From: a virus
Length of the DNA: 64,000 nt
IMG/VR virus record: IMGVR_UViG_3300046474_000470
Location: 20,888-84,887 of that record
Reading direction: 5' to 3' (one strand)
In this document: positions 29,853 to 49,254 of the stretch, piece after piece
How positions within the stretch are numbered: position 1 is the first letter of the stretch
Layout: each line of letters opens with the position of its first letter
Position numbers and translations under genes: made by a program
Notes under the pieces: generated by a model
The model's input: only the letters and a program-made list of their open reading frames with translations
Told to the model about the DNA's origin: nothing
The model's database searches: none

Positions 29853-30669
29853 TCGTGATCTCCTTCGTCAGGGTTGACGGCATCCCGGTAATCGGCTTGC
29901 GTCATGCCGTGAATGTTGTAGAACTCGGCGTCGTACTCGCGGCCGGTCAGCCCGTCGAGCTCCGGGTCGCGATAGGTGGGCGCCGCGCGCGGCGGGTATT
30001 GGTAGCCGCGGTTCGGCGGGCAGCTGGGTGCATGCTTGGTCACCCAGCGACCGCCGACCATGTTGGTCTCGCCAGCGCCGACCGCCACCGGCTGGCGACA
30101 GGCGGCGCAGATGGATTCGAATTTGTTGATCATGGTCGATAGTCCGAAACTTGATAGCTGTACAGCCCGCAGATGTCCAGCTTCTCGCTGTCGTCGCGGG
30201 CCACCTGCGTGACCAGGGTGGCCACGATGTCCTTGAGGATGTCCAGCTGCTGCTGAACCGAGCCGTCCGTCTGCTCGCGGATCGCAAGGTCTATCAGCTG
30301 CCGGGTCGAGCCGATCTGCGTCATGCCCTCGTTCGAGTGCTTGACGCCTTCAACCCAGAATTCATGCGTCATGGCTGCCGCTCCGACTTCTCGGCCGCCA
30401 GCCGCAGCGCCTCCAGTTCGTTCTGGCGCTCACGGGAGGCGCGCGCGGCGCCCACCATCTTCACGTTGCCCATGTGGAGCGGAATCTGCGGGATGCATTC
30501 GATCGTGATGACGAGGCCCCAGCTGGCAGCGCCGTCGATCAGGCCTTGCAACTCCTTGCGGGCCGCGACCAGGCTCTGCTCGGTCACCTGCAACTGGCGC
30601 TCGTACATCTTGCGCTCGTGCGTCTTGGTGGTGTCGGCGTGCGCCGCAAGGAGGTCGTCGATCGGTCGT

Positions 30670-31695
30670 TTAGATGTCATGGCTGGTCTCCCAGTTGCTG
30701 CTGCTGCCGAGGATCTCGCCGCCGGGGAGCGTGCCCGGGTCGAGCAGGATGACGAGGCACTTGCCGATATCGACGTTGCCGTCGGCGTCGCGCAGCTCGT
30801 CCTTGGAATCGACGCCGTCTTCATGCACGGCGGCGGCCGCCAACAGACGCTCCGGATCGTGGATCTTCACGTTCAGCGTGAAGTCGTAGTAGTGGCGCTG
30901 CGCCGGCGGGGCGAAGTCGGCGGCGGTGGCGGTCGGCAGATACTTGATGCTGTTCCAGCACCACCAGCCGGCGCCGATGTCCCAGGCCTTCTCGCCGTTG
31001 GGCATGATGGTCGGAGCGTAGCGCGTGGCCTGATTCTCCGTATCCTCGTCCATGTCGATGACGATCACGTTATCGCCTTCCCAGTGCATCGGCATCAGCG
31101 CGCCGTCTTCGGTCGCCTGGCGGATCAGCTCGTCGACGGCGGCGCGCTCGAAGAAGGGCTTCGACCAGCCGTTCCACAGGTCGCCGTTGCCCCAGCAGGC
31201 AAGCCGCTCGTCGTCTTTCATCCAGTCGGCGTCGACGAGCCCCTGGCGGTAGGTCGGCGGCTCCGTCATCTCGCGGAAGGTCTCGAAGAATTTGTCGCGC
31301 AGCATGCGGTGCGAGAAGCCGCCGCCGGCGGTATTGAATTCGACACTGCCGGTGCCTAGGCGCGAGATCGCCACGCGGCGGCCATCTTTGTCAACCCAGA
31401 CCTTCTTCGTGGCGTCGTTCAGGTAGTAGGTGGTGGCGTGGTCCCAGGCTGCGTTCCAGAGGCCGCGATCGGCCTCGCCTTGGGCAGTATCGTTCATCAC
31501 CATCGGGCGCTCCATCACGTCCTCGAAAGCGCTGGCCATTACCATGTTGGCGTCGCAGAAGTCGTGACTGTGGCAGGTGCCGGGGTCCATCTCGGCGGTG
31601 TTGCGGCGCAGGACCTCGGCGAATTGCTCTTCGGTCAGGACGTTCTCCAGCTGCTGCGCGAACATCTGGGCGATATTTACGACGGTTTGGGTCAT
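30670..31695 (-). CDS. Multi-domain hypothetical protein (341 aa)
   Basis: CHSHDFCDANM N-domain, then a WNGWSKP..IGAGWWCW domain. Confidence 0.7.
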   Translation of the reverse strand: MTQTVVNIAQMFAQQLENVLTEEQFAEVLRRNTAEMDPGTCHSHDFCDANMVMASAFEDVMERPMVMNDTAQGEADRGLWNAAWDHATTYYLNDATKKVWVDKDGRRVAISRLGTGSVEFNTAGGGFSHRMLRDKFFETFREMTEPPTYRQGLVDADWMKDDERLACWGNGDLWNGWSKPFFERAAVDELIRQATEDGALMPMHWEGDNVIVIDMDEDTENQATRYAPTIMPNGEKAWDIGAGWWCWNSIKYLPTATAADFAPPAQRHYYDFTLNVKIHDPERLLAAAAVHEDGVDSKDELRDADGNVDIGKCLVILLDPGTLPGGEILGSSSNWETSHDI

Positions 31696-34600
31696 GGGTG
31701 GCTCCCTTTAATTTCGTCAAGTTCGGACTGCAGATCTTCGATCTCGCATTCGGCATGGGCCGTCAGTTCAGGGTCGTCCTCGCGGTCGATGTAGGCCTGC
31801 AGCTTCCCGATTGTCTGCTCGATCACGCTGCCGGTTTGCGGCTTGAAGGTGGCGTCAGGGTATTCCTCCTGCACTTTCAGGCAGGCCATCTCGTCATCGT
31901 CGGCACGCACGAAGAAGAAAGCCAGCTCCTCGCCGTCGAGCTCGGCGCGGGCGGCCCACAGGTTGTCGGGCAGCCCGAAATACGCCCCGCCAGCGTCATA
32001 CCCTCCGTCGATCAGCGGCACGCGCTCGAGCTCGAACTCGAGATCGTCCATGCCGTGGGCGTGATGCTCGCGGCGGCCCATCGGCGCGCCGCGGCTGCAG
32101 TTCATTTCGGGCAGGCGGATGGGCATGCTATCTCCTCTTGTAGACGTGAAGGTCGACCAGATAGGTCAGGGTGGCAAGGTGGTCGAGGATCTCCTGTGCC
32201 GACTTGAAGTTGCCGGGCGCGGCATAGACGGCGTCGACCGTCTGGACGACGAACGTACCGACCTGCACGCCCAGCTGCCCGGAGAGGCCGGCGCCGCGCA
32301 GGCTGTCCAGCCGCTTCTCGACCTCTTTCGTGATAGCAGCCATGTCAGGCCTCGCCATCGTCGCGGAACTCCAGTTCGTCCATCCGGTATTCGTTGCCGT
32401 CCTCGTCAAGGTACAGCAACTGGCCAGTGGTCGAGCACGTCTGCGTTTTCTGGCTGTCCCAGAACACCTTGGTGCTGCCTTCCCAGATCGGCTCGTTCTT
32501 CTCGTCGAAGCCGGAGATATTGGCCCGGGCCGTAAGCCTTTCGAGGGTGCCAATGATCTGGGTATCGGTACCCTTCACGTATGCTTGCTTCATTTGTCAC
32601 TCTCCTTTTCTTGTTCAAGCAGGTGCGCCACGGCGCGGCCGCGCTGGTAGATGGTGTCGAAGTCGACGCCGTTCTCGTAGCTGCGCGGCCCAGCATTGTC
32701 AAAGCCGCGCTGCCAGTTCGCCCGGCTCATCGGCAGGCTGAAGACGTTGAGGTCGTTGCCGTACTGGCGGTGGCGCCGGATGTCGTCCTTCGCAAGCTCC
32801 TCGGCCTCGGCGCGGATGCCTTCGGGTGTAGTGGGGCGGCCCATGTCATTCTCCTTTCAGTTTGTCAAGGCTGCGTTGCAGGATGCTGCCCAGGTGCCCG
32901 GGGTGGAGCTCCTCGGCGCCGGCCAGCAGGGCTTCGGCCTTCTCTGCCACGTCCACCAGCGTCGGCAGCCGGTTCAGCAGCGGCATGTAGCGGGCGATGA
33001 CGTCGACCGTGTCGGCGCCGCTGACCGGCTCGTCGGCGTTGAAGCCGAGGCCTTCGAGTGCAGCGACCAGCAGCCGGGCCTGGGCGCCGATCTGGGTGGT
33101 AGGCGCCGCCACCGGCAGCACGCTGAAGTCGAAGTCGCGGATGAGGGCGGCGTCCTTGCAGTCGTCGGCATCCATGCAGCTGTCGTCCGCGTCTTCGTGC
33201 GCCAAGGTCTGGCCAAGGGACAGCGCCTTGTTCACCAGTTCGGCCACACGCTCGTTGCGCAGCATGGCGTCGGTGGTGACGATCAGTTCGAGTGCGTGTT
33301 TCATCGCACCACCTTCCATTCCTGCGCCTCGACGTCCCAGGTCACGCGCTGCATGCTGTGGAAATGGTGGCCAGGCACGATGAACTGGCCAACCTTGTAG
33401 AAGCCGGTGGCCTCGAACGCCATGATGTCTTCGTCCTTGCCGCGCACCAGCAGCGTCTGGATGCTGTCGGGGCCGTTGTCTTTATCCTGGATAATCTGCA
33501 TGTGCTACTCCTTGTAGAGGGAAAGGCCGGGCCAGGTGTCGGCGTCGACGTCGAGCATGATCCAGCCGGTATTGGTGTGCGGCTGCAGCGCGCGGAAAAC
33601 GTGCTGCAGGTCGACGGGCAGGCCGTAGAATTCGTCGCGCTGCTCGGCGTCGGCGCAGGCCTCGCAGGCCGGGATCCGGAGGAAGAAGCCGTCCTCGTAC
33701 TGGGCGATCCAGAAAGGCGGCTCGGCCTCGTCACGCTTGACGCGCAGCCAGTGCAGGGTGCGCTGTGACAGGTGGCGCAGCGCGATGGCCGGCATGGCGA
33801 TCTGACGGATCATAGCGGCTCCCCATCCACAGGCTCGCCGTCAATCTCGTAGAGGTCGACGTCGCCTTCGACGCTGACCTCGCACAGGATCGGCTCGCCG
33901 CCCGGCCAGCAGCCGAGGTTGGCGCTGGCACCGTCGACCTGTTCGCGAAGCAGATCGGCTGCAGCTTCCTTGGTGTCGGCCTTGACGCGGATGGCGCAGA
34001 CGAGGGTGGTGTCAAATGCGAATTCAGGCATAGCTGTTCCTAGTTGTTGAACCAGGCCACATGCGTGGCCCAGTCGGGTTTCGGGGTGGACCAGACGCTG
34101 TGGTCCATGCTGCGGCCTTCAGCAGTGGCCCAGTAGCCGTCGCCGTCGGAGCGGATGAAGCCGCTAGTCCTGCGGCACTGCTCGAACTCGTCAACCGTAA
34201 GCAGATCACCGCAGCTTCTATCGTGAGGCGTGAGCACGGGCACGGTCGGCGCCCAGTCGCCCCAGCTTTGCTCGCTGGCACGCCACTCGCACAGCTTGTC
34301 GAAGCGATCAGGCAGCGGCATCTCCTGCCATGTTGCGTGGGGATGCTCCAGGCCGCTGAAGACGATGCCGGCGCAGTCGCCAGTGGTGATGCCGACCTGG
34401 TCCATCACGCTGCGCAGCGCCTCGTCGAGGTCGTTGATGTTGGCTGCGACGTTGAGCATCTCGTCGGTGATGGCGTCGCCGGCGCGGCGCGTCGCCGGCT
34501 CGTCTTCGATCTCGGATATAGCGATCAAGCTCTCGTTTTCAGCGTCGATGTCGATCTGGGAGGGCAGGTTGAGACGCTCGCACAGGGCGTCGATCTGATC

Positions 34601-36360
34601 GTCGTCGAGCGGCGTGACGGCGCCGCAGTTGGTGGCGATGTCGATCAGGTTGCTCGGCACGGTACCGAGCCGCTGCAACTCGATCTGGTAGCCGCGCAGC
34701 GCGGCCAGCACGGTGGCGTGCTCGGCGGGGTTGAGGGCGTAGAGGGTGGTCATGGGTTCTCCTCGTCAATCTGGGCCTCGACCCAGTCCCAGTAGCCGCG
34801 GATCGTGATCCGCTGCGCGACGGCTTGGCGCCAGTCCCAGGCCGAATAGCGTGGGTGCTCGCCATCGCGCTCATCGTTGCTGGGCGTCGTGTACTTTTGG
34901 CGCAGTTCGTCAGCCGTCAGCAGCCGGTCGTCACGCGCAAGTTCGGGCGGGTAGTGGCTCATGCTTGTGTCTCCACTTCGTAATGCGTCCGGGCCCGCTC
35001 GAGCATGGCGTTGAAGTCCTGCTCGTTGCGGTCGGCCCAGTGCATCAGGTTGCAAAGCAGGTCGCCGAGGGCGTCTTCGCGGTCGGTGTTGGTCGCCATC
35101 TCGAAGTTGGCGATCGCGATCTCGGCCCATTCGGCGCGGGCGTCGTTCTGTCCTTCGGGGTCGGGTGGCAGGTTCATTTCATCTCCTTGGGTTGGTAATA
35201 GGCGACCTCGCCGGTCCAGGCGAAAGGCCAGGTGTCCAGCTTCACGCCGGCGCGGCCGGTGAGCAGCATGCGCGGCGGCCAGCCGGGCCACTCAGTGTTG
35301 GCCATCTCGTGGTTGACGACGGTGCCGTCGCCGTGCGGCGTGGTGACGCGGGCGCCGATGACGGGAAGGGTCACGGCCGGACCCTCCCGTCCGACAGCTT
35401 GAGCATCTCGACGTACTCGTGCAGCCGCTTCTTCGCCACGCGCAGAGCTTCTTTGATAGCCGGCACGTCCTCCGGGTAAGTGGCGCCCTTGTTGGCGTCG
35501 GCGATCGAGGCGTTGACGAACTTTGTGATGCGCTTCTTCAGTTCGCGGGCTTCGCTGGTGGTGATGGTCATGTGGTCTCCCTGTGGCGGTTGTAGCGGCG
35601 CTCCTGCTCCCGGTGGGTCAGGATCTGGTACATCTCGCTGCGCCGGCGGTGGTAGGGCAGGGCCTTGTACTCGCGCTTGAGGCGCTTGCGGATCCAGACC
35701 AGCGTCTCGCCGGTACCGTCGGCGAGCAGTATGTGCAGGGCGGCGCGCCGGATGCGCCGGGCGGCGCGGCCGTTCACGATGCCGCTCCCGACATATCGAT
35801 CACCACACGCAGACCATCCAGGATGACGTAGTAGACGTCGGCCTTGCGGGTGGTGTAGACGCGGCGCCAGCGGTGGTCGTCCAGCACCTGCACCTCGCGG
35901 GCGGTGGGCACCTTGTCCGCCCTGGTCTGGCCGTTCTTCGAAAAGCGCTCGCGCTGGTTGGTGACGGCGAGCTTGCGGTGCTGGGTTGGGTCGCTGGCGA
36001 GCATCTCGTAGTTGCTGGCGCCGACGGCGCGCACCCCGCGGATCGCGCGATCCGGGCAGCCTTCGGCGGCCATGACGGCGCGGCGCGCGGCCCCTTCGTC
36101 GGTGGCCATGGTCTCGATGGTGACCCAGCCGCGGTCGTGCTTAATTCGCAGGCGAAAACGGAACATGCTCTTCCTCCTCGTCGTCGCCGGACGAAGTCCA
36201 GCCGGTGTTGGTGGTGGCCCGGGCGCCGTACTGCTCGCAGACCGGCTCGAGGACTTGATCCTGCAGCTCCTCGACGGCGAACTTCAGGATGCTGTTCATG
36301 CTGTCCGGCGGCGGGCCGTCGTCGCCGAAGTCGATCACGATCTTGATTTCAAGTTGCATG

Positions 36361-36897
36361 TCAGATCCCCCGGTTCCAGTAGCCCAGCTTGCTCATCGCC
36401 AGCACCGCGGCCTCGGCCTGCACGATGGCGTCGTTCAGGGCGTTGTGGTGCACGCCCTGGCTGCGATCGGGCGAGATGCCGGCCAGGTCGTACAGGGTGC
36501 GGGTGCAGCGCACGTTGTAGAAGGTCCACGGCGCGTCGATGCCGGTCGCGCGGTAGGCGGCGTCCAGCAACGGCACGTCGAAGGTGGCGCCGTGGCACCA
36601 GACCTTCTCGCCTTTCTGGTAGGTGAACCAGTCGCGCAAGGAGTTCAGCACGCTGTTCAGGTGCCGGCCCTCCATACCGAACGCAGCAGCGCGCGCCTCG
36701 TCGCTCTGGCCCATCCACCAGGCCACGGTGTCCAGATCGATGGTGAGGCCGGCGGCGGCGCAGCTCTTCGGGTCGATGGCCCAGTGCCGGCCTTCTTCAA
36801 TCTGCACGCCGCGCTCGTCGAACGGCACGGCGCCGACGGAGAGAATGGCGGATCCGGGCGTGGTGCCCAGTGTTTCGATGTCAATCATGATGTGCAT
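36361..36897 (-). CDS. DEDDh 3'-5' exoribonuclease-like protein
   Basis: IMIDIETLG, TVAWW, HGATFD, HNALNDA. Confidence 0.85.
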   Translation of the reverse strand: MHIMIDIETLGTTPGSAILSVGAVPFDERGVQIEEGRHWAIDPKSCAAAGLTIDLDTVAWWMGQSDEARAAAFGMEGRHLNSVLNSLRDWFTYQKGEKVWCHGATFDVPLLDAAYRATGIDAPWTFYNVRCTRTLYDLAGISPDRSQGVHHNALNDAIVQAEAAVLAMSKLGYWNRGI

Positions 36898-38269
36898 ATG
36901 TGTTCCTTATTTGATGCGGACGAAGGCGATCGCCTCTTCCAGCGTGAGGTTGGTGAGGATCTCCTCGGCACGACCGTCGACGAGGTCTTGGCCGCCGCCG
37001 AAGGCGGCGCGCCACAGGTCGTCCGCAAGGATTTTCAGGTAGGCGTCATCGGCCAGCATGTCCGGTGCCAGCACGGCGCTGGCGCAGACGTCGTGGTCGA
37101 CCATGTGCTCGCCGACGGCCATGAGGAAGGCGCCGGCTTCGGCGTGGGTGAGGTTGGCGGGGATGGTCATGCCAGATTCTCCGCGAGGGCGCCGATCAGC
37201 TGCAGCGCGTTCATGTGGTAGGTGGAGCCGGCGTGAGCCTGCAGCGCGGCGTGAATGATGGCGTCGGCATCGCTGGCGAACTTGGGGTCGTCATAAGGCA
37301 CATCCGGATGGTCGCTCGGGCAGTCGATGCGCTGCAGCTGCAGGCGGCCGTCAACGTCAAACAGGTCCCAGCCCTCGGCCCAGGCTTGTGCATTGTCGAA
37401 ATGAATCATTCTTCCTCCGAAAGGTTGCGGCGCGCGAGCTCGGCGCGCGCCAGGTTGGCATAGGCTCGGCGGCCGGCGGCGCGCTCTTTCTCGAGCACAC
37501 CGTACACCTGCCGGTCGGTGCACTGACGCAGGTAGCCTTCGAATTCGTGGCGATCTTGGTTGGTCATGCCCAGCCCTCGTCGAACACATGAAAGACCATG
37601 CCGCCGGCCGTCTGCACGGTGCCGATAAAGGCGCCCTCGTAGTTCTGGTTCGGCCAGCCGGTGCCGATCACGCGGAGCCGGCGCGGCGCCGGCGGGCTCT
37701 CCGGATTGACCAGTGCCCAGACATAGAGCTCGCCAGCCTGCCCGCCGGTGGAGAGGATTTGCGCGTCGGCCGGCATGAGCGTCTCGCCGGACTGGATCAG
37801 ATACTTGTAGATGGTTTTCATGGCGCGTAAATCTCCGTGTTGGTGAGATCGATCTTCGGCAGCGCCTCCAGCGGCACGAAGGCGACCCAAGGGTTGGCAA
37901 TCATGTTGCTGTCGCTGGCAAGGATCAGCGCGTGGCCATACGGCGCCCACGGGATGATCTTGAAGCTGCCGATGTAGTCGTTGCTGGCGCCGCCGATGCG
38001 CGGCGTGCAGCGGCTCTCGACCCGCCGGCGAACGTCTGGCAGCGGCCGCACGTACAAACCATGCTTGAGGCAGCTGCTCAGGTTGTCGTCGCCCCAAATC
38101 TTGATGCCCGGCGCCTCGGAGCTGACGAAGAAGTAGCCGGGCGGGGCGATAGGGAGGGTGCCGCGGTCGCTGCGCTCGTAGCGGCAGTATTTGAAGTCGG
38201 CGAACAGGCTGGCCAGGTCGGGCATGACGCCGAACAGGGTCTTCGCGACGCTTTCGTCAGGTAGCGGCT

Positions 38270-38716
38270 TCATCGCGCAGCCTCCTGTGTCTGCTCGATG
38301 TCCTCGACCTGCGCGCGGACGTCGTCTTCCAGCTCCTCGCGCGCCAACAGCACGCGGATCCGGGCGATGACGTCGGCAGGCTTCGGGTCGTAGGTTTCCT
38401 CGCCCTTCTCGTTGACGGTGTAGGCGCTGCTGCTGAACAGGCGCCAGACGTCGTCGAAGTGCAGGCCGAAGAAAATCTCGAGGGCGTCCCAGTTGTTCGG
38501 GTTGTCGGCGCCGGGCGCGGTGTCCAGCAGGAGGACCGGGACGCGGCCGGAGCCGGTACCGCGCAGCTCGAAACCCTGCTGGTTAAAGACCGGGTCCTGG
38601 GCTGCATGGCCGGCGGCGCAGGCCGCGGTGCCACAGGTCCAGTTGTCCATCTTGAGCCGCCCGGGCGGCACGCGCTCGAGGATGGTGATGAGGTGTTTCA
38701 GGCGTTCACGGTTCAT
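38270..38716 (-). CDS. Hypothetical protein, paralog family B
   Basis: MNRERLKHLITIL..CGTAACAAG..DPVF..ADVIARI. Confidence 0.75.
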   Translation of the reverse strand: MNRERLKHLITILERVPPGRLKMDNWTCGTAACAAGHAAQDPVFNQQGFELRGTGSGRVPVLLLDTAPGADNPNNWDALEIFFGLHFDDVWRLFSSSAYTVNEKGEETYDPKPADVIARIRVLLAREELEDDVRAQVEDIEQTQEAAR

Positions 38717-40066
38717 GACTTCTCCTGGTAGTAGGTCTGGCAGAGGACGGCGTCGTTGAGGGCGTTGATCAGCTGGCGGCGCCACTCGTTGTCGTTTTCC
38801 ATCGGCTCCTGGTCGTAGATGAAGGTGTGGATCGGCGTGGCCTCACCGCGCTTGACTGCAGCAGAAGCCTCTTCGTAGGGAGGCAAGTTGGTCATTCCTC
38901 TTCCTCCTCGAAGCTGATCTCGACGCGCAGCAGGTTGCCGGCGCTGTCCTCCACCCGGTAGACCGGAAAGCGGCCGTCGCCCCAGGCGGTGCGGGAAGCG
39001 ACCGCCGTCTCGGCGCCGCGGCCAGCGAGCTCGCCGCCCTTGCTGCCGTCAATGGTGCGGAAGCAGGCGCTGTTGTAATCCAGGCCGTAGCGCGGCAGGG
39101 TGGTCGGGATGCGCTGGTAGGTGCCGGCGTCGAGCAGCTGGTTCATGCATTTGCCGCCTTCGCTCTCGATCGGCGACTGGAAGTGGTCGAAGTCGACGCC
39201 ATACTGCAGGACCTTACCGTCGGCGTTCTTGAAGCGGCGGATGTCCTGGAATTCGGTGTCCTGCCAGTGGGCGAGATAGCGGGGGTCGACGATGACGAAC
39301 TGGCCGGAGTCGATGGTGATGTGGCCGATGAGCTTGCGGATGGGGTGGGTCACAGGAGGTCTCCCAGGGTTTGCTGTTTGATGGTGGTGGAAACGATGCC
39401 GTACATTTCGGTACGGTGCTGGCAGTTGCCGTACTTGCGCAGACAGGTGATCATGCCGCGCGGGGCCGTGTCGCCAGCGAAGTTGAGGGCGCACTGGATG
39501 GCGTCGGCCTTGGTCAGCGCGATGCTTTGGCTTTCGGACAGGCAGCCGGGCAGATGCCACTCGGCGATCCAGATCTTGCGGCGCAGGGCGCTAGCCAGCA
39601 CGTCGGCGGCGCGAACGCCGTAACCGTCGGCCAGGCGCTCGATGGCTTCGTCGAAGGTGAGCTTCACAGCAGCCTCCCTTCGATGATGCGACTGGCCACC
39701 AGCACGACGCAGCCGGGCTTGTGCTCCACGGGCAGCATGTCGAGGTCGACGATGCAGTAGCGGCAGCGGGCGTCGCCGTGCGGGTTGATCCAGCGATGCC
39801 AGCGGTGCACCGTCTGGGCAAGCTGCAGCACTTCTTCGGGGGTGGCGCTCATGCTTCCTCCTCGATCCAGCGCAGGCCGAGGAAGTGCGGCGACCATGCC
39901 TTGTGCAGGCGCATGTCGCCGACGTCGTCGGGGTTGGACCAGACGTGCACGTAATTCGTTTCCGGGTCCCAGCCGGCAACGGTGTAGAAGCGTGCCGGAT
40001 AAGCGCCGCGCTCGCGCACGACGTCGCCCGGGCGGACCTTGAAGCCGGAGTCTTCGCGGACGAGGA

Positions 40067-40306
40067 TCATTTCTGGGCCTCGACGTCGCGTAGTTGCTTG
40101 ATCAGCGCGAGGAGGGTGTTCGGGTTGGCAGCTTCGACGAAGGCAAGCTCCGGGCTGTCTTCGCCGACACAGGTCTCCAGCACGTAGCGCATGCCGCCGT
40201 AGCTGGGCGCGGCGATGACGACGCCGGTGGATTCCCAGTCGCCGCGGAAGGTGCCGCCGCCGGCGGCGATGGCTTTCGCTTCGAGATCGTCAAGGTTGGT
40301 GGTCAT
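40067..40306 (-). CDS. Ead/Ea22-like protein
   Basis: LDDLEAKA..AFVEAANPNTLLALIKQL. Confidence 0.6.
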   Translation of the reverse strand: MTTNLDDLEAKAIAAGGGTFRGDWESTGVVIAAPSYGGMRYVLETCVGEDSPELAFVEAANPNTLLALIKQLRDVEAQK

Positions 40307-40379
40307 TCGTCGAGGCTCCAGCTGAGGCCGAGGATTTCAGCCGGCCACGGCGTCAGGTGGCGCACGTCGGTGGCGCGGC

Positions 40380-40769
40380 TCATTTCGTTTCTCCTCGTGC
40401 AAGTAATTTTTCGATGCGGGCGATGACGTCCGCGGTGGTGGGATTGCGGCCGTAGCTGCCCGACGAGAACAGATTCAGGCTCTCCTGCAGGGTGATGTCG
40501 AAGAACTGGGAGGCGACGTCGAAGCCGGTGAGCCAGTCTTCGGTACCGGCCAGTCGCGGCTGGAAAGCTGCGGCGTTGCCACCGTACTGCGACTGCTCAT
40601 AGACCAGCGTCAGGCCCTGCTCGATAAAGACTGGGTCGAGGCAGGCCCATCCAATGGCGCAGGCCACCGTGCCGCAGTCGCGGTTCTCGCGCCAGGTGCT
40701 GAGGGTGAATTGCTCGGCCGGCACGCCCTGCAGGACGGTGATCAGGTGCTGCAAACGCTCGCGGCTCAT
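40380..40769 (-). CDS. Hypothetical protein, paralog family B
   Basis: MSRERLQHLITVL..CGTVACAIG..DPVF..ADVIARI. Confidence 0.75.
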   Translation of the reverse strand: MSRERLQHLITVLQGVPAEQFTLSTWRENRDCGTVACAIGWACLDPVFIEQGLTLVYEQSQYGGNAAAFQPRLAGTEDWLTGFDVASQFFDITLQESLNLFSSGSYGRNPTTADVIARIEKLLARGETK

Positions 40770-41155
40770 TTCGTGGCTCCTGTGGCAAGGGTGATGGCGC
40801 GGTTGTAGGTGGCGACGACTTCCTTCGGCGTGCGGCCGAGGAATTCAGCGACGGCTTCGAGCGTGAGGTGGCCGGTGAGCTCCATGGTCGGCGACCAGCT
40901 GGCGCGCAGCAGGCGCGCCATGTCGAGGGTGAGATCGGAGCCCTCAGCCTGGGTGATGAGGGCTTCGATTTCTTCAGGCGACTCGGTGACGGTCAGGGAT
41001 CCGCTCACCAGGTGGACGCTCGTCAGCTGCACGCGGCTGCCGGTGTCTGTCTGGTAGGGCGGCGGCAGGGTGATGCTTTCGATGTTGGTGGTGCGGATAC
41101 GCACCGGGCGTTGGCGGGCATAGGTGGCGGCGTTGTTCAGGGTGATGAAGGACAT
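40766..41155 (-). CDS. FlbD-like N-terminal domain with possible C-terminal HTH
   Basis: FITL..IESI..VTESPEEIEALI, then TLEAVAEFLGRTPKEV. Confidence 0.45.
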   Translation of the reverse strand: MSFITLNNAATYARQRPVRIRTTNIESITLPPPYQTDTGSRVQLTSVHLVSGSLTVTESPEEIEALITQAEGSDLTLDMARLLRASWSPTMELTGHLTLEAVAEFLGRTPKEVVATYNRAITLATGATK

Positions 41156-41488
41156 TTAATTCTCCTTGATGTTGGCGATGAGGCGATCGAGCCATGCGAG
41201 GCGGGCAAGGTGCAGGATGCCGTCCTCGTTCATGTAGCCGTCGAAGTATTGAGGTGGCAGATCGCGGGTGGGCGTGCCCGGGCAAACTTCCTTGACCAGC
41301 CAGGTCGAGAGCAGGAAGAACGGGGCGATGCCCTCCTCGATGACGGCCCTGATGTCGCGCGCGAGGACGCCTTCCGCGCGCCCTTCGATGGCGTTGTGGA
41401 TGGCGAAGCAGATGTAATGCTGCTTGCCGCTGTCGATGAGGGCGCGCGCGGCCTCCAGGATGGGCAGATGCTTGTGGGTGAGGGTCAT
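41156..41488 (-). CDS. Hypothetical protein, paralog family A
   Basis: LTxxHLPIL..IC..ARLAWLDRLI. Confidence 0.75.
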   Translation of the reverse strand: MTLTHKHLPILEAARALIDSGKQHYICFAIHNAIEGRAEGVLARDIRAVIEEGIAPFFLLSTWLVKEVCPGTPTRDLPPQYFDGYMNEDGILHLARLAWLDRLIANIKEN

Positions 41489-43104
41489 TCTTCCCCCATC
41501 TCAAGGGTCTTCACCATGTCGATGACGACCGCGTCGAGAGTGCGCTGGGCACTGGCCAGGCGTTCCATGGCGTCGAGCACCTGCGGGAAACGCTCGCGGA
41601 TCTGCGGCTTGAGCTCAGCCCAGCACACGCTGCGCGTCATGTCGCCCTTTTCGGCGTGGAAGTGGCTCAGGCCGCGGGCTTCGGCGGCGTTCAGTTTTGT
41701 GGTCATGCGTTACCTCGTAATGATGGCGCCGGTGGCGTCGTTGGTTTGGCGAACGGTGAAGTCGACTTTCAGCTGGCGGATGGTGCGGCGACGCTGGCGG
41801 GCGTTGCCGGACAGGCTGAAGGTGACGATGTGCTTGTCGCCGTCCCAGACCTCGACGCGGCCGGCGTAGGGCCCGGCCGGGCTGTCGTAGCGCTGGATGA
41901 TCTTGGGGCGGTGGTGGGTCACCCAGCCGCCGTTCAGCACTTTCAGTTCGAGGCCGTCGAAGTCGACATCGATCAGCATCCGGGCGGCGGCCGCCTGCAC
42001 AGCGCTGTTGGTGACGGTCTGGCGGGCGGGCGCGGACTGGCGCCGGCCGGTGCCCAGGGGTTTGACGCGGCCCAGCTGCTGCTCTTTGCTCGAGCCGTTG
42101 CAGATGCAGCGGTCGGGCAGATACTGGTTGCAGACCGGGCAGCGCGGTGGTGTGTTTCTCATGCTCCCTCCATGTAGGCTTTGATGGCCTCGTCGAGCAT
42201 GTCGCCCGAGTAGGTCTGGATGCCGTTCGTCAGGTCGCTGGCCTGCACCACGGCGAGCCGGCCGTCGCTCCAGTGCATGGCGCGCAGGGCGGCGTAGAGG
42301 TCGGCGGGGGCGAGGGCGGCGGCGCGCTCGCACAGCGCGGCGTCATGCGAGCCGGCCATGTCGTCATGCTGGTCCTCCAGTTGTTCGATGTGGGCGGCTT
42401 GCTGGGCGAGGGCGGCACGCAGCTCGGCGATCTCGGCGATCATGTGCACGGTGTTCAGCGGCGCGACGCGCTTTTGCGGGTGGCGCTTGAACCAGTCGGC
42501 GCGGCGCTCCTCCCAAGTCTTTACGGGCTTCATTTTCTTCCTTTCTTGGCAAGTTTCTTGGCGTCGACGGCGTCGTTCCAGGCGCGGTGCTCGGCGTGCT
42601 GGGCGCGAGTCTGCATGACGGCGGCCCAGTCGATAGGCTCGCGGAACCGCCAGTATTCGCCCGGCACCGGCGGGAAGCCGGCCAGCGCGTGTTCGGGCGG
42701 CGGCGCCTCGCCAGCGTACTGGACGTGCTTGTTGCCGTCGTAGTGCGTCAGGTCGTAATTCATCTGGTTGCCGCAGGTCGGGCACTTGAAGCCGTAAATG
42801 GTGCGTCGGGTGCGACCGCAGTCCGCGCCGAAGCAGTAGGGCACGTAGTTGGGATCGTCATCCTTTTGCTTTTGCATCGGGTCGTCCTTCAGCCGCGGGT
42901 GATTGATGTCGGTCTTGGGGATGCGGTGGCGCGCGGCCAGCTGCTCGGCGAGTTGTTCGAGGCTCATTTAATCCTCGTAGCGGTAAGAGGTCAGGCGGTG
43001 CGCAAGTGCGCGGCCCGCCTCGTAGGTGGCGTCCAGGCCTTCGAGGCGGGTGGTGCAGGCCCGGCGGAATTCGTAGATGCCGAGCAGGAAAGCGTGAAGT
43101 CGTT

Positions 43105-43422
43105 TCATGGTTGCTCCAGGTCGTGGATGAGCTTGTCGAGCCACGCAAGCCGGGCCAGTGGCATCAGGTCGCAAGGCGTACGGAACAGGATGTTGAGAGC
43201 GATATCGGGATCTTCGGCGCCGGGATACAGCTGGGCGCCGAGCCACATCTCAAGCGTGTAGTGCGGCGCGATGCTGGCCTGGATGTGGTCGACGACCTCT
43301 TCGTGCAGGGCGTCAAGTCTGAACTGCAGGACTTCGACACACAGGCAGAGGAAGCGCTGCCGGCCTGAGATGAGGACGGCACGGGCGCGGCGCAGGATCG
43401 GGAGGTGTTGTTCAGTCAGCAT
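43105..43422 (-). CDS. Hypothetical protein, paralog family A
   Basis: LTxxHLPIL..LC..ARLAWLDKLI. Confidence 0.75.
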   Translation of the reverse strand: MLTEQHLPILRRARAVLISGRQRFLCLCVEVLQFRLDALHEEVVDHIQASIAPHYTLEMWLGAQLYPGAEDPDIALNILFRTPCDLMPLARLAWLDKLIHDLEQP

Positions 43423-43771
43423 GATCGATATCCCAGATGAGTTTGTCCAGCCACACGAGGCGCATGTTGCGGCGCAGCTGCTCGTAGGCGGGGCGGCGCG
43501 GGTCGTGCATGTTCGGGACGTCAGCCAGCAGGCTGGGCAGCGGGATGCCAGCGCGGCCCATCTTCATGATCACCCAGCTGGTGAGGTAGGGCTGCTCGTC
43601 GAGCTCGTGCTCGACGTACTTGATGATCTGGCCGGCAAGCTGTTGGATGGCTTCGTCTTTCGTGCGCTCGCTAATGCGTCTGCAGGCGTAGCAGATGAAG
43701 AGCTCGCGCTCGGCGGTGATATCGTCGCGCACCAGGTGCAGCAGTGGGAGGTGGTCGCGGGTGAGGGTCAT
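43412..43771 (-). CDS. Hypothetical protein, paralog family A
   Basis: LTxxHLPLL..IC..RLVWLDKLI. Confidence 0.75.
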   Translation of the reverse strand: MTLTRDHLPLLHLVRDDITAERELFICYACRRISERTKDEAIQQLAGQIIKYVEHELDEQPYLTSWVIMKMGRAGIPLPSLLADVPNMHDPRRPAYEQLRRNMRLVWLDKLIWDIDHAD

Positions 43772-44453
43772 GACGTGGCCTTTATGTCAGCGATGATCTG
43801 GTCGACCAGCGCAAGTGTTGCTGCCTGGTTGGGTGGGGTGAGGGCTTTGAGCTCGTCGCAGGCGGTCTGGACCTTGCGCCGGTGGTCGGATGCGGCGACA
43901 TCATCCAGCGCTTGCAGGATGCTTTCACCGGCTTCGACGCGGCCGCGCACATGATTCAGGATGCGAAGGCGGATGGCGGCGCTCATAGGTGGCCGTCCAG
44001 TCGAGCGCGCACAGGCTCTTCGAGGCCGGCCACGAAGTCGGAGGCTTCGGACAGGGCGCGCAGGACGGGCGCAAGGTTGCGGTGCTGCCATGCGTCGAGC
44101 TCGACCACAGGCACGCCGCCGGCGGTGAAGTAGCCGTCACGGCTCACACCGAAGGCGTGGCGCTTGAGGTTGAAGGGGCGCAGGTGGCGCCGGATCTCGT
44201 AGGCGGCCAGGCAGGCGGCCTTGTGATAGGCGACGTCGAGGATGGCTTCGATTTCCAGGGTTTGCATGTTCATGGCTCAGTCCCTGATGGTGGCATGTTC
44301 GGCCTGCAGGCGGGCAAGTCGCTCCTGCAGCATGGCGACGTTGGCGTTGGCGCGCTCTTGGGCGAGCTTGGCGAGGAAGAGGTCGTGTTCGGTTTCGCGG
44401 ATGGTCTGGCCACGCATCTCGGCGAGGCTGGGCGGCTGGAAGAAGGTTTTCAT

Positions 44454-44962
44454 GTAATTTTGAGAGGAAAGTGTGAGTTTTGATGGTTGGGCGAAAAACG
44501 ACTGATAAGTAGCCAGTTTCTTCGTGTTCTGTACAGAAGTTTGTTGTTGTCTAAAAGAAATGAACACTTTTACGCGAAGTTACGGAAAAGTTGTAGGCTG
44601 TACAACATTTGCAACAAAATGACGTACAGTCACTCGTGTATAAGAGCACAGGTAACCTATTTTCGACCTTGTAACTTTGAGATGAAATTGTGAATTACCG
44701 AGGCTAAACTGTGTTCGTGAGGGCCGTTCTGGAAATGAAAAGAGCCCCCCCTAAACATCAAAAAATCGAGGTCGGCCAGATAAGAACACAAAACAGGAAA
44801 AAACAAAAAACCTAAATCGCCCAATCGTTCTACAGCTATACCCAAAATGGTGATCACAGTATAGATAATTACTTTTTAGGGTGTGCTCTCTATAGGGCGG
44901 CTTGGGCAGGCGTCGATTTTGTGTGGTATTATCCAACTTCCCAACCCACTTGCGAGACCATC
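44454..44962. promoter_or_regulatory. AT-rich divergent intergenic region (promoters, possible origin)
   Basis: Sharp GC drop, no credible ORF, A-tracts, short palindromes, and extended -10 TGGTATTAT near 44924. Confidence 0.6.
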
Positions 44963-45700
44963 ATGGAAAACCTGAATCGAATCCTGAAACAAGAAGACGT
45001 GCCTCAGCATTTCGTCCTGGAAGGCTCACGCCTGTACCGGAAATACAGCACGGGCGCCGTCACCCAGCTCAAGAGCATGGACGGCAACACGGTCGTCACC
45101 TTGTTCGATGGCCACCGCTTGCGCGGCGTCGATATTGCGTGGTGCCTGCTGCACGGAAACTGGCCAGCCTTTCCGATCGTCCAGCTGCACGAAGATCCGC
45201 ATGACTTCTCGGAGGGCAATCTCTACCCTGCCCGCCTCAAGCGCCTGCGCTACCGTGAAACGCAGAAGGGTCTGCTGTTCTATCACCCGCTCAGCCTGCT
45301 CGGGCACATCAGCGCGAAACGCTGCCGCGAACACTGGGAGCATCTGGCCCATGACTACTATATGAAGGACTACACCTATGTCCTGCGGGCTGAGGCGTAC
45401 GATCGCGAGATGCGGCTGACCACCCTGCAGAGTCTGCCGCCAAAGCCTGTGCCCCCAGAACACGCCCAATACGCCAAGCGCCCGGCACGCCCTAAAGCGG
45501 TCCCGGGCATGGAATGGCACTGGTGGCAGGGCGCGTGGATCAGCGTGCCGGTCGCCGTGCACGTCTCGGACGATTACCGCGTGCGCATCAAGGCCGCGCA
45601 GGCCGGCGCCACGTCGTTCCGCTTCGATCCCGAGGCGCAGCGCACGCGCGCCTACCTGCCTGACGGCTCCGAGCTGGTTCATGCTGCCACCTCGGCCTGA
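44963..45700 (+). CDS. Degenerate HNH-endonuclease-like protein
   Basis: IAWCLLHGNWP..IVQLHEDPHDFSEGNL resembles the HNH_3 scaffold (AWxxxxGxWP..IDHxDG..NNxxxNL) but lacks catalytic residues. Confidence 0.55.
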   Translation: MENLNRILKQEDVPQHFVLEGSRLYRKYSTGAVTQLKSMDGNTVVTLFDGHRLRGVDIAWCLLHGNWPAFPIVQLHEDPHDFSEGNLYPARLKRLRYRETQKGLLFYHPLSLLGHISAKRCREHWEHLAHDYYMKDYTYVLRAEAYDREMRLTTLQSLPPKPVPPEHAQYAKRPARPKAVPGMEWHWWQGAWISVPVAVHVSDDYRVRIKAAQAGATSFRFDPEAQRTRAYLPDGSELVHAATSA

Positions 45701-47028
45701 GCCAGCTTCTCCAGCTGGTTCTGGTGGTTGCGCTCGATCGCTGCCTCGTGCCATGTGTCGCACGCGGCAACGATCCGGCCGGAATAATGCTCGACCACGA
45801 AAGGCTTGGCCACCTTGTCGGCAGCGATGGCCCGGCGGGCCAGATAGGAGAGTTCGGACATTTTGTTGTCTTTCTTTTATTTACGTGGTTCTTTCGATTC
45901 CAGCCAGATGATCAGGCCGATCACGCTGGAAAACACAAGCAGGCACAGCCCATCGAACAGCGGGAAGGCGTTCACGCTGCCACCTCGGCAGCGATGCCGC
46001 GGGCGTTCTCGTACGCGATCAGGCCGTGTACCAGGATGATGAGCCAGACCAGGCCGCGCAAGATCAGGCCGTAATACTGCAAACCGTCCTCACCTGCAGC
46101 TTGTTGGTCGACGCCGGCCAGCACGACCATGACGAGGGTGGAAAAGAGGATTTTGATGGCTTTCATGTGGGTCTCCAGTGGTTAGAACGTCCACGTCAGC
46201 GCCGCTGCGCTGACATTGAAGCTCTAGCAGACCAGATCAATGGGCACGAGGCGCGACTCGTACTGCATGCGGTCGATGCGCACGGAGCAGCCCCAGCCAT
46301 CAAGGTGCGAAGTCCACGCTTCGTCGTCCGGCTCGATCTTTGCTTCGGCTGCCTGCCGCCGGTATTGCAGCTGGGTTAGATTGGCGCCATGCTCGTCCAG
46401 GATGACGGTCGGCGCGCTGCCGTTGTCAGGGTGGGCGGTGATGGTAGCTCGGTAGATTTTCATGTTGACGTCCTTTCAGAGTTAGCAAACTAGCTTGATT
46501 TTGCGGATGTAGGCCGTGTAATCGAGGCTGGTGCCGTCCGGATCGGTGATCCGGACTTCAGAGCTTCCATCCGGGAAGCTCTTCCAGTCCTGCTCACCGG
46601 CAATCGCTGCCTGCCGGACATGCAGGCGGCGCGTGAGTTCGGCCAGATCGGCGCCGTACTCGCGCAGCACGTCGTTCAAGGCACCCTCGAATTCGGTGGA
46701 GGTTTCGATTGCGGATTCGTAGATAGTCGTCATGCTGCACTCCATTTGAAGGTGAGGGATGTTTTCGGCGTCGACAGGTCTGGGCGATTCTTTTCGCCGC
46801 GCGCTTTTGGCGGCATCGGGATATTCAGCGCGCCTGCCTCGATTACGTGGCCGCGCTTTTCTTTTCGGCGCTTCGGAACCTGCACAATCTCAGGATCGAA
46901 CAGTTTCGATCGGGTCTCAATGACAGGTTCTGTAACCAGGTTTTTATGCGGTTTCGGCAGCGCTTTTGCATATTGCGCTATCGTCCCACGTAGGGCCGTT
47001 TTAATCGGCAACCTAATTATCTTTCTCA
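45679..47028 (-). other. Six small early CDSs (45679-45861, about 45877-45975, 45972-46166, 46224-46463, 46482-46733, 46730-47028), two of them hydrophobic
   Basis: ORF track plus a manually read 32-aa TM peptide MNAFPLFDGLCLLVFSSVIGLIIWLESKEPRK. Confidence 0.55.
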
Positions 47029-47039
47029 TCGTTTTTTCT

Positions 47040-47755
47040 CCTAACAATATCGCTGTCCGATTCGGCATCGCGTAACAACCCGATGGCGAACCGGACAGAG
47101 TATTGCCTTTACCGTATTCACGCCCGGTAAATGGCGCTATCGCTTGCCAAAGCGATTCCGCTCATCGCGGCTAGGCTTGCTAAACCTAGATTGGTTTCAC
47201 TGCCTACGCAATCATTCGGCCTTATCCTGTCCCGGCTTATCTCACTCAGATTATCAGGCCACCATTTCCGGCTGATACAAGAGCTATTTTCGCTTTCCAT
47301 GTCAGCTACTAGGCCGGTATCTATCCGGCATTCACTGGCATGCGCACAGATTGCCCACCGTACAGCGCCTGTTGACGCTTGAACCTGTCCAACTACATAC
47401 AGCGGGTTTTCGTTTGATTGCGCCGCTCTAGGAAACGTCCCAGAGCGTGCGTTTTATGCTGACGGCCCGATTCACTAGTACCGCGTTAGGTATAGGATGA
47501 AACGCGACAGGCGACACGGCTGAAAGGACAGCGTGAGCATGCGCGCAACAGATTCACAGTCGCGGATTTAGGTGGGCTCTATTGTTAAAGAATGGTCCCG
47601 ATGCTAGCGGCTGGACGGTGGCGAATGACGCCAGCGATTCCGCTAGGGTACGGCGCGCGGTGGTCCTATCAGCGTTCTGTGATAGGCCGCACGATATGAA
47701 GCTATCTATAAGGGCGCACGCGCCCTTATAGATAGCACCATAAAGGTGCTATGCA
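47040..47755 (-). ncRNA. Putative large structured non-coding RNA / antitermination leader
   Basis: About 700 nt without a credible ORF, containing at least 11 inverted repeats and boxA-like TTCTTTAACAAT. Confidence 0.55.
47581..47592 (-). promoter_or_regulatory. boxA-like antitermination element
   Basis: Minus strand reads TTCTTTAACAAT; the rrn boxA core is GCTCTTTAACAA. Confidence 0.6.
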
Positions 47756-47759
47756 GGGT

Positions 47760-48503
47760 TTAGGCCGGAACCGGTTCCGCTTTGGAGTCAGCCGCCACTT
47801 TCGCCAGCAACAGCGCGGTTTCACGCGTCTTGGCGGCTTCGATAATCATGGTTTCCAATTCCGCCGGGAGCATGCCCGATTTGAGCATGTCAGCCACGGT
47901 GCGCGCCATGATATCGGGCGCAGTGGCGGCTTCGACGCGCGCCGCCACTTCCGAAGTGACAGCGGCGCGCGCTTCCCGTTCCGCTTCCTTGGCGGCTTTG
48001 GCAGCATCCGCCAGCTTGGCGGCTTTGGCGGCTTCACGGGCGGCTTTGGCGGCTTCCTCCTCTTCCGCCGTGCGCGCCGGGGATGCCATCAAGAGCGTAA
48101 AATTGCCCGTGAACGCGTCAGCATAGTCCGACGCCAGCGGCGCAAGGATGGCGTCGCGTTCCGCTTGCGCTTTCGGCAAGTCTTTCAGCATCTCCGGCGC
48201 AGGGAATGCCGCCAGCGTCGCCAGCACGGCGGCGTAGACACGATGGAAGCGCTTGGCGGCCGCGTTCAGAGTCTTTGCGCCAACGGCATCCTTGCATGCC
48301 TTGTTGGCGTCAGCCGTGTCCGCACCGTACATTTGCGCGTCATTGGACAGTTTGATAAACGCGGTTTTGTTGCCTGCCAGCATGATCGAATAGGCGGCGC
48401 TGTAGACGGTGCAAGAGATCAGATCGAATTGCGCGGCTTCGTCGCCAGCGACGGCGCGGAACAGATCGGACATGGCGATATTGCGGGATTGAGTAGCTTT
48501 CAT
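47760..48503 (-). CDS. Ala-rich hypothetical protein, first gene of the leftward unit
   Basis: SD AGGAG; 247 aa with a coiled-coil-like C-terminal half. Confidence 0.75.
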   Translation of the reverse strand: MKATQSRNIAMSDLFRAVAGDEAAQFDLISCTVYSAAYSIMLAGNKTAFIKLSNDAQMYGADTADANKACKDAVGAKTLNAAAKRFHRVYAAVLATLAAFPAPEMLKDLPKAQAERDAILAPLASDYADAFTGNFTLLMASPARTAEEEEAAKAAREAAKAAKLADAAKAAKEAEREARAAVTSEVAARVEAATAPDIMARTVADMLKSGMLPAELETMIIEAAKTRETALLLAKVAADSKAEPVPA

Positions 48504-48611
48504 TTGTAAGACTCCTGAGAATGGGTGACTGCGATTAGATAAGGTTCGGTGCGCGGCGGCATCTTCGCCACCACCACCACTACACTACAAAAACACTACA
48601 ACTAAGCACTC

Positions 48612-48640
48612 ATTATGCGGGAAAACTGTGTTGTTGTCCC
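48612..48640 (-). promoter_or_regulatory. Candidate early promoter
   Basis: GGGACA-17 nt-CATAAT upstream of 48503. Confidence 0.45.
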
Positions 48641-49008
48641 ATTGTATTTTTGTATCAAGCTGCGCAGGTGGATAGCTTTTCCCTATGCTGGCCCGGCTGG
48701 CGCCCTCGCGCAGGTGAGGCTATCGAGACCTGGCTATTGATAGTTTTTAGCTATATCTGGGACGGTAACTGTGGCGAAAATACCACTTGACAAACCGGGA
48801 ATCACTAAAACCGGTCAGTGAATTGTGAATTAATTACGTCATAAACTGTGTCATTAGTTGACAACTCACTCGGATTTGCCTAAATAATAGGCAGATTTGT
48901 GTCGCGATTTAACACATTGCTTTTAAGCAATGCCGCTAGGACGCGTTTAACGGCCCTATGCGCGGCCTGGACGGCGCGCGGGTGCATGTGCGCGCCGATT
49001 GTGTCGCC

Positions 49009-49036
49009 GCTCTGAGGGGCTCTGAGGGGCTCTGAG
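49009..49036 (+). repeat. 10-bp tandem repeat GCTCTGAGGG, about 2.8 copies
   Basis: GCTCTGAGGG GCTCTGAGGG GCTCTGAG. Confidence 0.9.
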
Positions 49037-49084
49037 ACGGGGGTACTTTCCTGACAGCAAGCAGGTGCCCGCGCCCTCCTACCT

Positions 49085-49215
49085 GCCCAAAAATTTCTCC
49101 CAAATTTTTAAACTTTTGCGTAGCTTTTCGTCAACTATTACCGAAATTCCGAAATTTCATGCCATTTCGTTGACTTTTTCAGAAATTTTTCGGATTTTCC
49201 GAAATTTTCCGTCAC
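49085..49215. repeat. AT-rich tract of repeated (G/C/A)AAATT units, candidate packaging/terminase-binding site
   Basis: About six AAATT(T/C) units just upstream of the terminase module. Confidence 0.55.
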
Positions 49216-49254
49216 TTTCTAGGCAAAAACCTTTCCTCGTGGCATACTTATTGC

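Follow-up and report, generated by a model that had tools for sequence, protein, structure and literature searches.

A previously uncatalogued family of large structured RNAs carrying a boxA-like signal in a clade of uncultured soil phages

An untranslated gap of 730 nucleotides (nt) on the minus strand of an uncultured phage genome, at positions 47030-47759 of the 64,000-nt stretch analyzed here (hereafter the window), encodes a large, multi-domain structured RNA and is not protein-coding. Together with its relatives, this RNA forms what we consider a well-supported and previously uncatalogued family of large structured RNAs that carries a boxA-like signal and is limited to uncultured soil phages of one clade, ~85-93 kilobases (kb) in size. 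The window comprises bases 20888-84887 of an 84,887-base-pair (bp) IMG/VR phage record (IMGVR_UViG_3300046474_000470) that has direct terminal repeats and is rated complete. A search of sequencing runs identified two DNA runs that contain the stretch, both from rhizosphere metagenomes and one of them perhaps the source sample; no RNA run did, an outcome that is uninformative either way.

The gap extends from the stop codon of an open reading frame (ORF) of 247 amino acids (aa) to an ATG at 47029. A sequence-only reading of the window had drawn attention to a slightly smaller interval as hairpin-dense and devoid of any credible ORF, and we likewise found no conserved small ORF or reading frame; peptide similarity among homologs is confined to short, frame-switching pieces spread across all six frames. 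That reading had also named folding energies relative to shuffled controls on both strands, and covariation among homologs, as the checks on a structured RNA. The minus strand folds with a predicted energy of -272 kcal/mol, compared with -238 ± 6 kcal/mol for dinucleotide shuffles (z -5.5), and the plus strand gives a z of -4.9 against its shuffles. Covariation was assessed over the whole RNA with six full-length homologs (mean column identity 67%) by using MAFFT and RNAalifold. The resulting consensus contains 184 pairs, 84 of which exhibit compensatory changes wherein both sides have changed. Pairing is possible in 90% of the consensus cells, versus 34-42% when the partners are slid by one to three columns, and none of 500 whole-RNA column shuffles reached any of five measures.

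The functional strand is the minus strand, because three measures agree on it. The consensus energy is -192 kcal/mol on the minus strand versus -160 kcal/mol on the plus strand. G-U cells outnumber A-C cells by 104 to 34 (39 to 24 on the pairs common to both strands). Finally, strong scores with R1, a covariance model built for the 3′ domain, are obtained solely on the gene strand (64-156 bits). Of the eleven inverted repeats noted at first sight, ten correspond to consensus helices, with the one at 47108-47131 proving to be a pseudoknot stem; the repeat at 47482-47506 corresponds to no single helix and instead runs across the 3′ strands of two of them (helices 7 and 8). A direct repeat at 47338 and 47537 is present as described (15-18 nt). 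The hexamer ATTCAC does occur at 47116, 47330, 47470 and 47552, but only the copy at 47552 and, in part, that at 47116 are conserved in relatives. The notion that GUGAAU is a repeated protein-binding motif is not sustained, given that the copies are mostly specific to the window.

The 3′ domain was examined in a model-fitted R1 alignment of 15 rows, 14 of them distinct, of which three are spurious weak matches (E 0.015-0.57). In this alignment 94% of the cells are paired and 37 of 46 pairs are compensatory, a result matched by none of 500 shuffles. The domain includes an H-type pseudoknot composed of two mutually crossing stems. Stem one pairs GCGCC (47133-47137) with GGCGU (47120-47124), the latter appearing as GGCGY across relatives. 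Stem two pairs AUUUACCG (47125-47132) with CGGUAAA (47108-47114), and GAAUA (47115-47119) serves as a conserved loop. At least eight complementary versions of stem two occur, including UUUACCG/CGGUAAA, UUUCCC/GGGAAA, GUUCC/GGAAC, CCCUCCCC/GGGGAGGG, UCUCG/CGAGA and GACUG/CAGUC, and the mean duplex energy of each strand with its own partner is -7.3 kcal/mol, versus -3.1 kcal/mol with the partners from other sequences. Covariation therefore supports this pseudoknot. Separately, the 3′ domain of the relatives contains GCGGUAGCG, which recalls the RfaH ops or JUMPstart element (GGCGGUAGnnUG, with invariant G5 and T6). We rejected this identity because the key bases vary together with their pairing partners in the stem of the UGGC-loop hairpin: the corresponding positions read GCGAUAGCG in the window, GCGGCAGCG in the relative L003 and GCGGUGGCG in the relative L005.

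The R1 model covers the 3′ domain only, and the evidence for the 5′ module comes from the MAFFT and RNAalifold analysis and from reading of the sequences. The long hairpin at the 5′ edge (47696-47741) is followed by CUUCAUAUCG and has no U-tract, so it does not qualify as an intrinsic terminator. The loop ACAnAACGCU of the next hairpin is kept in the window, L003-L005, L009, L228, L236, L245 and L249, and takes the form ACAUAACGAU in L233; it is carried on at least eight different stems. When inspected by eye, the ACAGAACGCU loop showed no co-varying partner among the other conserved single strands. A leader-trailer helix bracketing the entire RNA was also considered and rejected, since the pairing energy is -15.9 kcal/mol with the own partner and -15.8 kcal/mol with mismatched partners.

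Beyond the 5′ hairpins lies a boxA-like element, UUCUUUAACAAU at 47581-47592 on the minus strand. The sequence-only reading had noted this element, and it proves to be unpaired and conserved; the exact string YCTTTAACAA is found once in 64 kb. The gamma-proteobacterial boxA consensus is GYUCUUUAANA (PMC5725501). The window version, AUUCUUUAACA, agrees with 10 of these 11 positions and carries G2 to A. A one-mismatch match to the consensus in the window alone is not above chance. The motif instead gains its weight because it is invariant across homologs. The string YCUUUAACAA is kept in seven homologs, each one mismatch away from the gamma-proteobacterial consensus, which may not be that of the host. 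The run CUUUAACAA(U) is both invariant and unpaired in the seven homologs and is among the two longest invariant runs, the other of which lies in a stem. The motif is unpaired in the RNAalifold consensus as well as in the single-sequence centroid. In distant relatives, variants with zero to two mismatches occupy the same place while the flanks diverge. They include perfect 8-nt cores, namely CGCUCUUU in L240, UGUUCUUU in L248 and CGCUCUUA in L243, and GCUCCUU is found in L244. A boxA-like signal is thus retained at one place across the clade. Two additional boxA-like strings on the minus strand, UGCUCUUAUAC (44637-44647) and GUUCUUAUC (44779-44787), reside in a second region rich in A and T, but neither recurs at the equivalent position in 12 relatives and both are probably chance occurrences.

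Gaps homologous to this one occupy the same position in no fewer than 12 related phage contigs of IMG/VR. Searching with the 99-aa protein encoded just downstream of the RNA recovered three IMG/VR contigs, a DNA pattern recovered two more, and a search with the large terminase yielded 32 loci. By using nhmmer and the R1 model, we located the element in L231-L234, L236-L238, L242/L243, L244 and L247. In each of these relatives the RNA follows the homolog of the 247-aa gene, lies on the gene strand, and is about 2.5-3 kb from the terminase gene. A degenerate 26-nt pattern from the 3′ domain matched 12 IMG/VR contigs plus the record of the window itself (13 in total), one of which had not been found before. 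In four distant terminase relatives (L240, L245, L248 and L249), the 247-aa homolog is followed by a 570-900-nt gap, and these relatives share the 5′ module with the window but not the R1 domain. The hairpin with the ACAnAACGCU loop is clear in two of them, L245 and L249, and the downstream part in all four may represent a replaced or strongly diverged RNA body. A natural deletion variant is seen in L236 (5250-5760, minus strand), wherein the 5′ module is joined directly to the 3′ domain and ~250 nt are missing. Hairpin 10 and the middle domain have been lost there as one block, and this block is therefore a separable module.

We did not detect the RNA beyond this clade in the collections searched. 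A blastn search of the region against 50,697 GenBank phages returned no match, and a search of metagenome and genome contig collections with the pattern CGCTTTGGCARGCGNNNGCGCC, filtered with an nhmmer profile, gave only chance matches. None of the 4227 Rfam models, which include those for GOLLD, ROOL, OLE, raiA, HEARO, riboswitches, ribozymes, ribosomal protein leaders, tmRNA and RNase P, matched the window or eight relatives at the gathering threshold. This agrees with the earlier impression that the region resembles no recognized RNA class. At E<5 the window produced only sub-threshold and evidently chance hits (three hits to two microRNA precursor families, plus aceE-II and atpB), and ARAGORN reported no tRNA or tmRNA. 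The parts of the RNA, its neighbors and the corresponding features in relatives are collected in Table 1.

Table 1. Coordinates of the structured RNA, its parts, the flanking genes and corresponding features in relatives. Positions are those of the window unless a relative is named; parts of the RNA are listed 5′ to 3′ on the minus strand.
Feature	Position	Strand	Evidence or remarks
Whole structured RNA region	47030..47759	-	Fold z -5.5; 84/184 compensatory pairs; no Rfam match
5′ hairpins right after the stop codon: a short one overlapping the base of a long ~20-bp hairpin with GC-rich top	47696..47752	-	Helix 2: 11/20 pairs compensatory
Hairpin with conserved 10-nt loop ACAGAACGCU (47671-47680) and freely covarying stem	47654..47693	-	Helices 3, 4
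Branched or extended hairpin ahead of boxA	47598..47653	-	Helix 5: 6/18 pairs compensatory
boxA-like AUUCUUUAACAAU, unpaired	47581..47593	-	9-10 invariant columns in 7 homologs
Domain 2, multi-helix, closed by a long-range helix starting right after boxA	47462..47582	-	Helices 6-9
Conserved single-stranded linker CAGCAUAAAACG	47450..47461	-	Near-invariant, unpaired in alignment
Hairpin 10 and middle domain, closed by GCGCAAUCA/UGAUUGCGU (47415-47423 with 47206-47214)	47206..47447	-	Helices 10-21; deleted in L236
3′ domain, most widely conserved part	47033..47193	-	R1 matches 12 loci at 64-156 bits
3′ domain: hairpin	47171-47189	-	Consensus
3′ domain: hairpin with invariant GAUGA loop	47158-47170	-	Consensus
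3′ domain: UGGC-loop hairpin	47139-47156	-	Consensus
3′ domain: pseudoknot	47108-47137	-	Duplex energies, own versus mismatched partners
3′ domain: closing helix	47043-47107	-	Consensus
Upstream 247-aa gene, first of unit	47760..48503	-	Ala/Lys/Glu-rich center; precedes the RNA in all relatives (synteny)
Downstream 99-aa gene	46730..47029	-	Very basic (pI 10.9), Pro/Lys/Arg-rich; homologs found
Gap in distant relative L240	4330-5058	-	5′ hairpins, boxA-like motif
Gap in distant relative L245	5204-5773	-	5′ hairpins, boxA-like motif
Gap in distant relative L248	~4910-5770	-	5′ hairpins, boxA-like motif
Gap in distant relative L249	~640-1155	-	5′ hairpins, boxA-like motif
boxA variant, L238 and L245			GUUCAUUAACAAU
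boxA variant, L244			GCUCCUUAACAAU
boxA variant, L249			GAUCUUUAACAAA
boxA variant, L236			GGUCUAUAACAAC
boxA variant, L240			CGCUCUUUAUGA
boxA variant, L248			UGUUCUUUAUCC
boxA variant, L243			CGCUCUUA (lambda type), ~25 nt upstream of aligned position

The RNA resides in a short first leftward unit that consists of the 247-aa gene, the RNA, the gene for a basic protein and a few small ORFs, and that ends at a convergent gene. The start of the downstream gene is M14 of a listed 112-aa ORF, giving a 99-aa product, as judged from the conservation of this start in homologs; its ATG is preceded by a good Shine-Dalgarno sequence, and the closing helix of the 3′ domain stops just before that sequence. 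A small basic, proline-rich protein (isoelectric point, pI, 10-11.5) is encoded after the RNA in five of six lineages, and the sequences are barely alignable between lineages. In L234 (4450-4654, minus strand), ~200 nt with a different small ORF separate the end of the RNA from the 99-aa homolog. Searches of Pfam and PHROG with the 99-aa and 247-aa proteins at E 0.01 identified no family, there being one sub-threshold COX15-CtaA match, and Protein Atlas placed both only in unnamed viral clusters below 0.9, which is uninformative. Behind the 99-aa gene are four small ORFs in the window versus one in L003. Two adjacent small ORFs in this area (46482-46745 and 46224-46463, minus strand), of 87 and 79 aa, share the ending ...LVC and look paralogous.

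The convergent gene on the plus strand (44921-45700, a 259-aa ORF) is conserved, with 58% identity over 240 residues in L003, and belongs to no Pfam or PHROG family. Beyond it, a second AT-rich, promoter-like region heads the long array of replication genes. Genes leftward of 48503 are on the minus strand and, farther on, include those for DNA polymerase, primase, helicase and a DNA methyltransferase. The RNA had been placed after the first early gene and at the head of a very long minus-strand array. It does follow the first leftward gene, but the convergent gene and the second promoter-like region stand between it and the long array, which it therefore does not directly head. Rightward of 49255 come genes for a helix-turn-helix protein, for a protein of 179 aa and for a large terminase of the GpA type. 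Between the two directions of transcription lies a divergent, AT-rich control region (48504-49254), in which TTCCGAAATTT is present three times (49147, 49178 and 49197). The region also contains an imperfect direct repeat of 40 nt (49094/49175) and, near 49010-49040, a tandem repeat of the CCCCTCAGAG type. These repeats may be regulator, promoter or packaging signals beside the helix-turn-helix and terminase genes.

Signals that would define the RNA as an independent transcription unit were also sought. We detected neither a sigma-70-like promoter nor an intrinsic terminator within the RNA element or at its edges, and a scan of the minus strand from 46500 to 48500 revealed no intrinsic terminator. 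Across 28000-47100, 14 intrinsic terminators are predicted versus 14.3 expected from shuffles, which is no excess, and we found no terminators that would need read-through.

We favor, with moderate confidence, a reading in which this is a co-transcribed intercistronic RNA whose boxA would secure its own synthesis and folding as well as the expression of the genes downstream, and whose 3′ domain would tune production of the basic protein. Transcription would proceed leftward from the promoter region near 48.6 kb through the 247-aa gene, the RNA, the 99-aa gene and the few small ORFs. On entering the 730 nt of untranslated RNA, the polymerase would produce a boxA bound by host NusB and S10, after which NusA, NusG and SuhB would join to form a modified elongation complex of the rrn type. 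By protecting the transcript from Rho-dependent polarity, this complex would permit the RNA and the genes behind it to be made, and it would aid co-transcriptional folding of the long RNA, as in ribosomal RNA (rRNA) operons. Such protection would be needed because 730 untranslated nt between translated genes is the situation that invites Rho polarity. It has been established that boxA recruits NusB and NusE and gives rise to Rho-resistant complexes, which also chaperone the folding of rRNA (PMC12360218, PMC8632103, PMC4807359). The lytic phage T7 uses boxA behind its early promoters (PMC3709561). When located close to a ribosome-binding site, a boxA can likewise repress translation, as occurs at suhB, and the structured nutL-N leader has been discussed in similar terms (PMC5725501). 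The 3′ pseudoknot domain, located a few nt before the ribosome-binding site, might, as a pure conjecture, set or feed back on translation of the basic protein, in the manner of the structured lambda nutL-N leader or of the leaders of ribosomal proteins.

Several observations weigh against this intercistronic reading. Position 2 of the boxA-like motif is A in the window and C in L004 and L005, and in lambda boxA the changes G2U, C5A and U6G abolish function (PMC3177189). Moreover, positions 7-13 of the motif (UUAACAA) are better kept across the clade than positions 2-6, whereas NusB and S10 read nucleotides 1-8 of boxA (PMC3177189). The Shine-Dalgarno sequence of the 99-aa gene is not visibly sequestered. 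Lastly, a simple anti-Rho signal leaves ~550 nt of conserved, tertiary-looking structure unexplained.

The elaborate conserved structure would be better explained by a stand-alone RNA or ribonucleoprotein (RNP) complex that is cut from the early transcript, for example by RNase III at the long 5′ hairpin, and that acts in trans either alone or with the 99-aa or 247-aa protein. Such an RNA could be a scaffold, a decoy, an enzyme cofactor or an anti-defense RNA, with boxA needed only for an rRNA-like biogenesis. The RNA is indeed large and modular, with conserved GAUGA, UGGC and ACAnAACGCU loops, a pseudoknot, long-range helices and a long perfect hairpin at its 5′ edge. Its 3′ domain is recognizable (64-114 bits) where the flanking proteins are undetectable by tblastn, its middle domain was lost as a block in L236, and a small, very basic protein follows it in five of six lineages. 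However, the RNA lacks its own promoter and terminator and has no leader-trailer helix (-15.9 versus -15.8 kcal/mol), it always lies between the same two genes, and the family does not extend beyond a single phage clade (13 contigs in IMG/VR). On balance we regard a stand-alone role as unlikely. Slightly more doubtful still is a bolder form of this idea, in which the RNA is a large (~0.7 kb) phage RNA class that would be made like a miniature rRNA on a boxA/Nus-modified polymerase and would then itself work early in infection, probably as an RNP with the basic protein, for example by taking over or shielding a host machine. Along with the unrelated RNAs of the phiEco32 group, such a class would point to a general strategy whereby lytic phages borrow rRNA biogenesis.

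We find it improbable, and a little more so than these, that the region functions as a nut-like site, at which boxA and a conserved hairpin, such as the one with the ACAnAACGCU loop, would load an N-like phage protein, perhaps the 99-aa product, and thereby make RNA polymerase processively resistant to termination, permitting read-through of the convergent gene into the long array. The layout of a first gene or promoter, a boxA and a small basic protein resembles lambda pL-nutL-N and pR-cro-nutR, a strictly conserved loop on covarying stems is typical of a protein-binding loop, and the array behind holds the genes for DNA polymerase, primase, helicase and methyltransferase. Nevertheless, no hairpin of the boxB type directly follows boxA on its 3′ side, where the next helix is long-range (47573-47582 with 47462-47469), and neither neighboring protein matches an antiterminator family. 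Intrinsic terminators downstream are no more common than in shuffles, a second promoter-like region stands ahead of the long array, and 700 nt are not required for a nut site.

That boxA RNA can compete for Nus factors is a classical finding. A conserved boxA on an RNA in what gene order suggests is the early region could accordingly mark a decoy, wherein abundant early RNA titrates NusB and S10 away from host rRNA operons, but with a single boxA per 730 nt and the rest of the structure left unexplained, we consider this very unlikely. Least likely by our estimate, to the point of being barely credible, is a DNA-level element (an origin, a packaging or partition site, or an operator cluster) or a missed protein gene: the region is hairpin-dense, has a lower G+C content (55% versus 65%) and folds well on both strands, but the compensatory changes with G-U intermediates, the strand asymmetry and the covarying pseudoknot have no DNA-level rationale, and the region contains no iterons, direct-repeat arrays or conserved frame.

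It is rare for a large RNA to combine a conserved structure with complex tertiary features, and most such RNAs have proved to do something unusual. In the present case, the combination of a host signal, boxA, with ~550 nt of unexplained conserved architecture provides an experimental handle, and the two neighboring proteins are candidate partners. If it is true that unrelated phages, namely the clade of the window and the phiEco32 group, have independently placed boxA before large untranslated RNAs, the protection and folding of non-ribosomal RNAs by means of Nus factors would be more widespread than the known cases of rRNA, CRISPR arrays and suhB suggest. Even if the conservative reading is right and the RNA is a giant intercistronic leader, it would represent phage gene control of unusual elaborateness.

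Among known systems, antitermination in rrn leaders and spacers, which employs a boxB hairpin, boxA and boxC together with NusA, NusB, NusE, NusG, SuhB and S4, shares with the phage RNA a single-stranded boxA-like motif of the UCUUUAACAA type that is preceded by hairpins. In both, this motif stands at the entry to a long untranslated structured RNA, and the role proposed is Rho resistance and co-transcriptional folding. The phage RNA differs in that it is not an rRNA, lies between protein genes, has no recognized boxC and no leader-trailer helix, and deviates in the 5′ half of boxA. As in the lambda nutL/nutR-N system, the phage RNA follows a first gene (like nutR after cro), precedes the gene for a small basic protein (like nutL before N) and has a boxA-like motif; in lambda, translation of N is also controlled by its structured leader. 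Unlike the lambda sites, the phage RNA has no boxB by boxA and no N-family protein, and it is about ten times larger; we looked for a lambda-type boxB (a GNRA-like pentaloop a few nt 3′ of boxA) and found no conserved local hairpin at that place. The HK022 put RNA, by its description two hairpins of ~70 nt that lie behind a promoter and require no protein factors, differs in both position and size, given that the RNA of the window comes after a gene.

Leaders of ribosomal protein mRNAs (S15, S4 and L20) are alike in layout only, with a pseudoknot upstream of the ribosome-binding site for a small basic protein; neither sequence nor model gives a match, and the window structure is far larger. 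The GOLLD, ROOL, OLE, raiA and HEARO RNAs resemble the window RNA in being several hundred nt long, multi-domain, pseudoknotted and phage-borne. The window RNA is distinguished from them by the lack of an Rfam model match, by the absence of its own promoter and terminator, by its boxA-like motif and by its restriction to one clade.

T7 and the phiEco32-like phages are lytic phages with a host-type boxA ahead of a long gene-free early stretch; the early gap of the latter is, with the rrn leader and lambda nut, one of the nearest functional analogs. In phiEco32, the 1.9-kb gap between genes 124 and 125 (72787-74730, minus strand; 12788-14731 in our locus L263) contains four perfect GYTCTTTAANA sequences on the gene strand, whereas 0.2 would be expected. 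The window RNA differs from these in having a single boxA-like motif, which follows a gene and not tandem promoters. When run with filters off on the phiEco32 locus, R1, which models the 3′ domain only, gave nothing above 3.3 bits, and the neighboring proteins are unrelated. The resemblance between the two phage groups, as judged from their sequences, thus appears to be one of design and not of descent.

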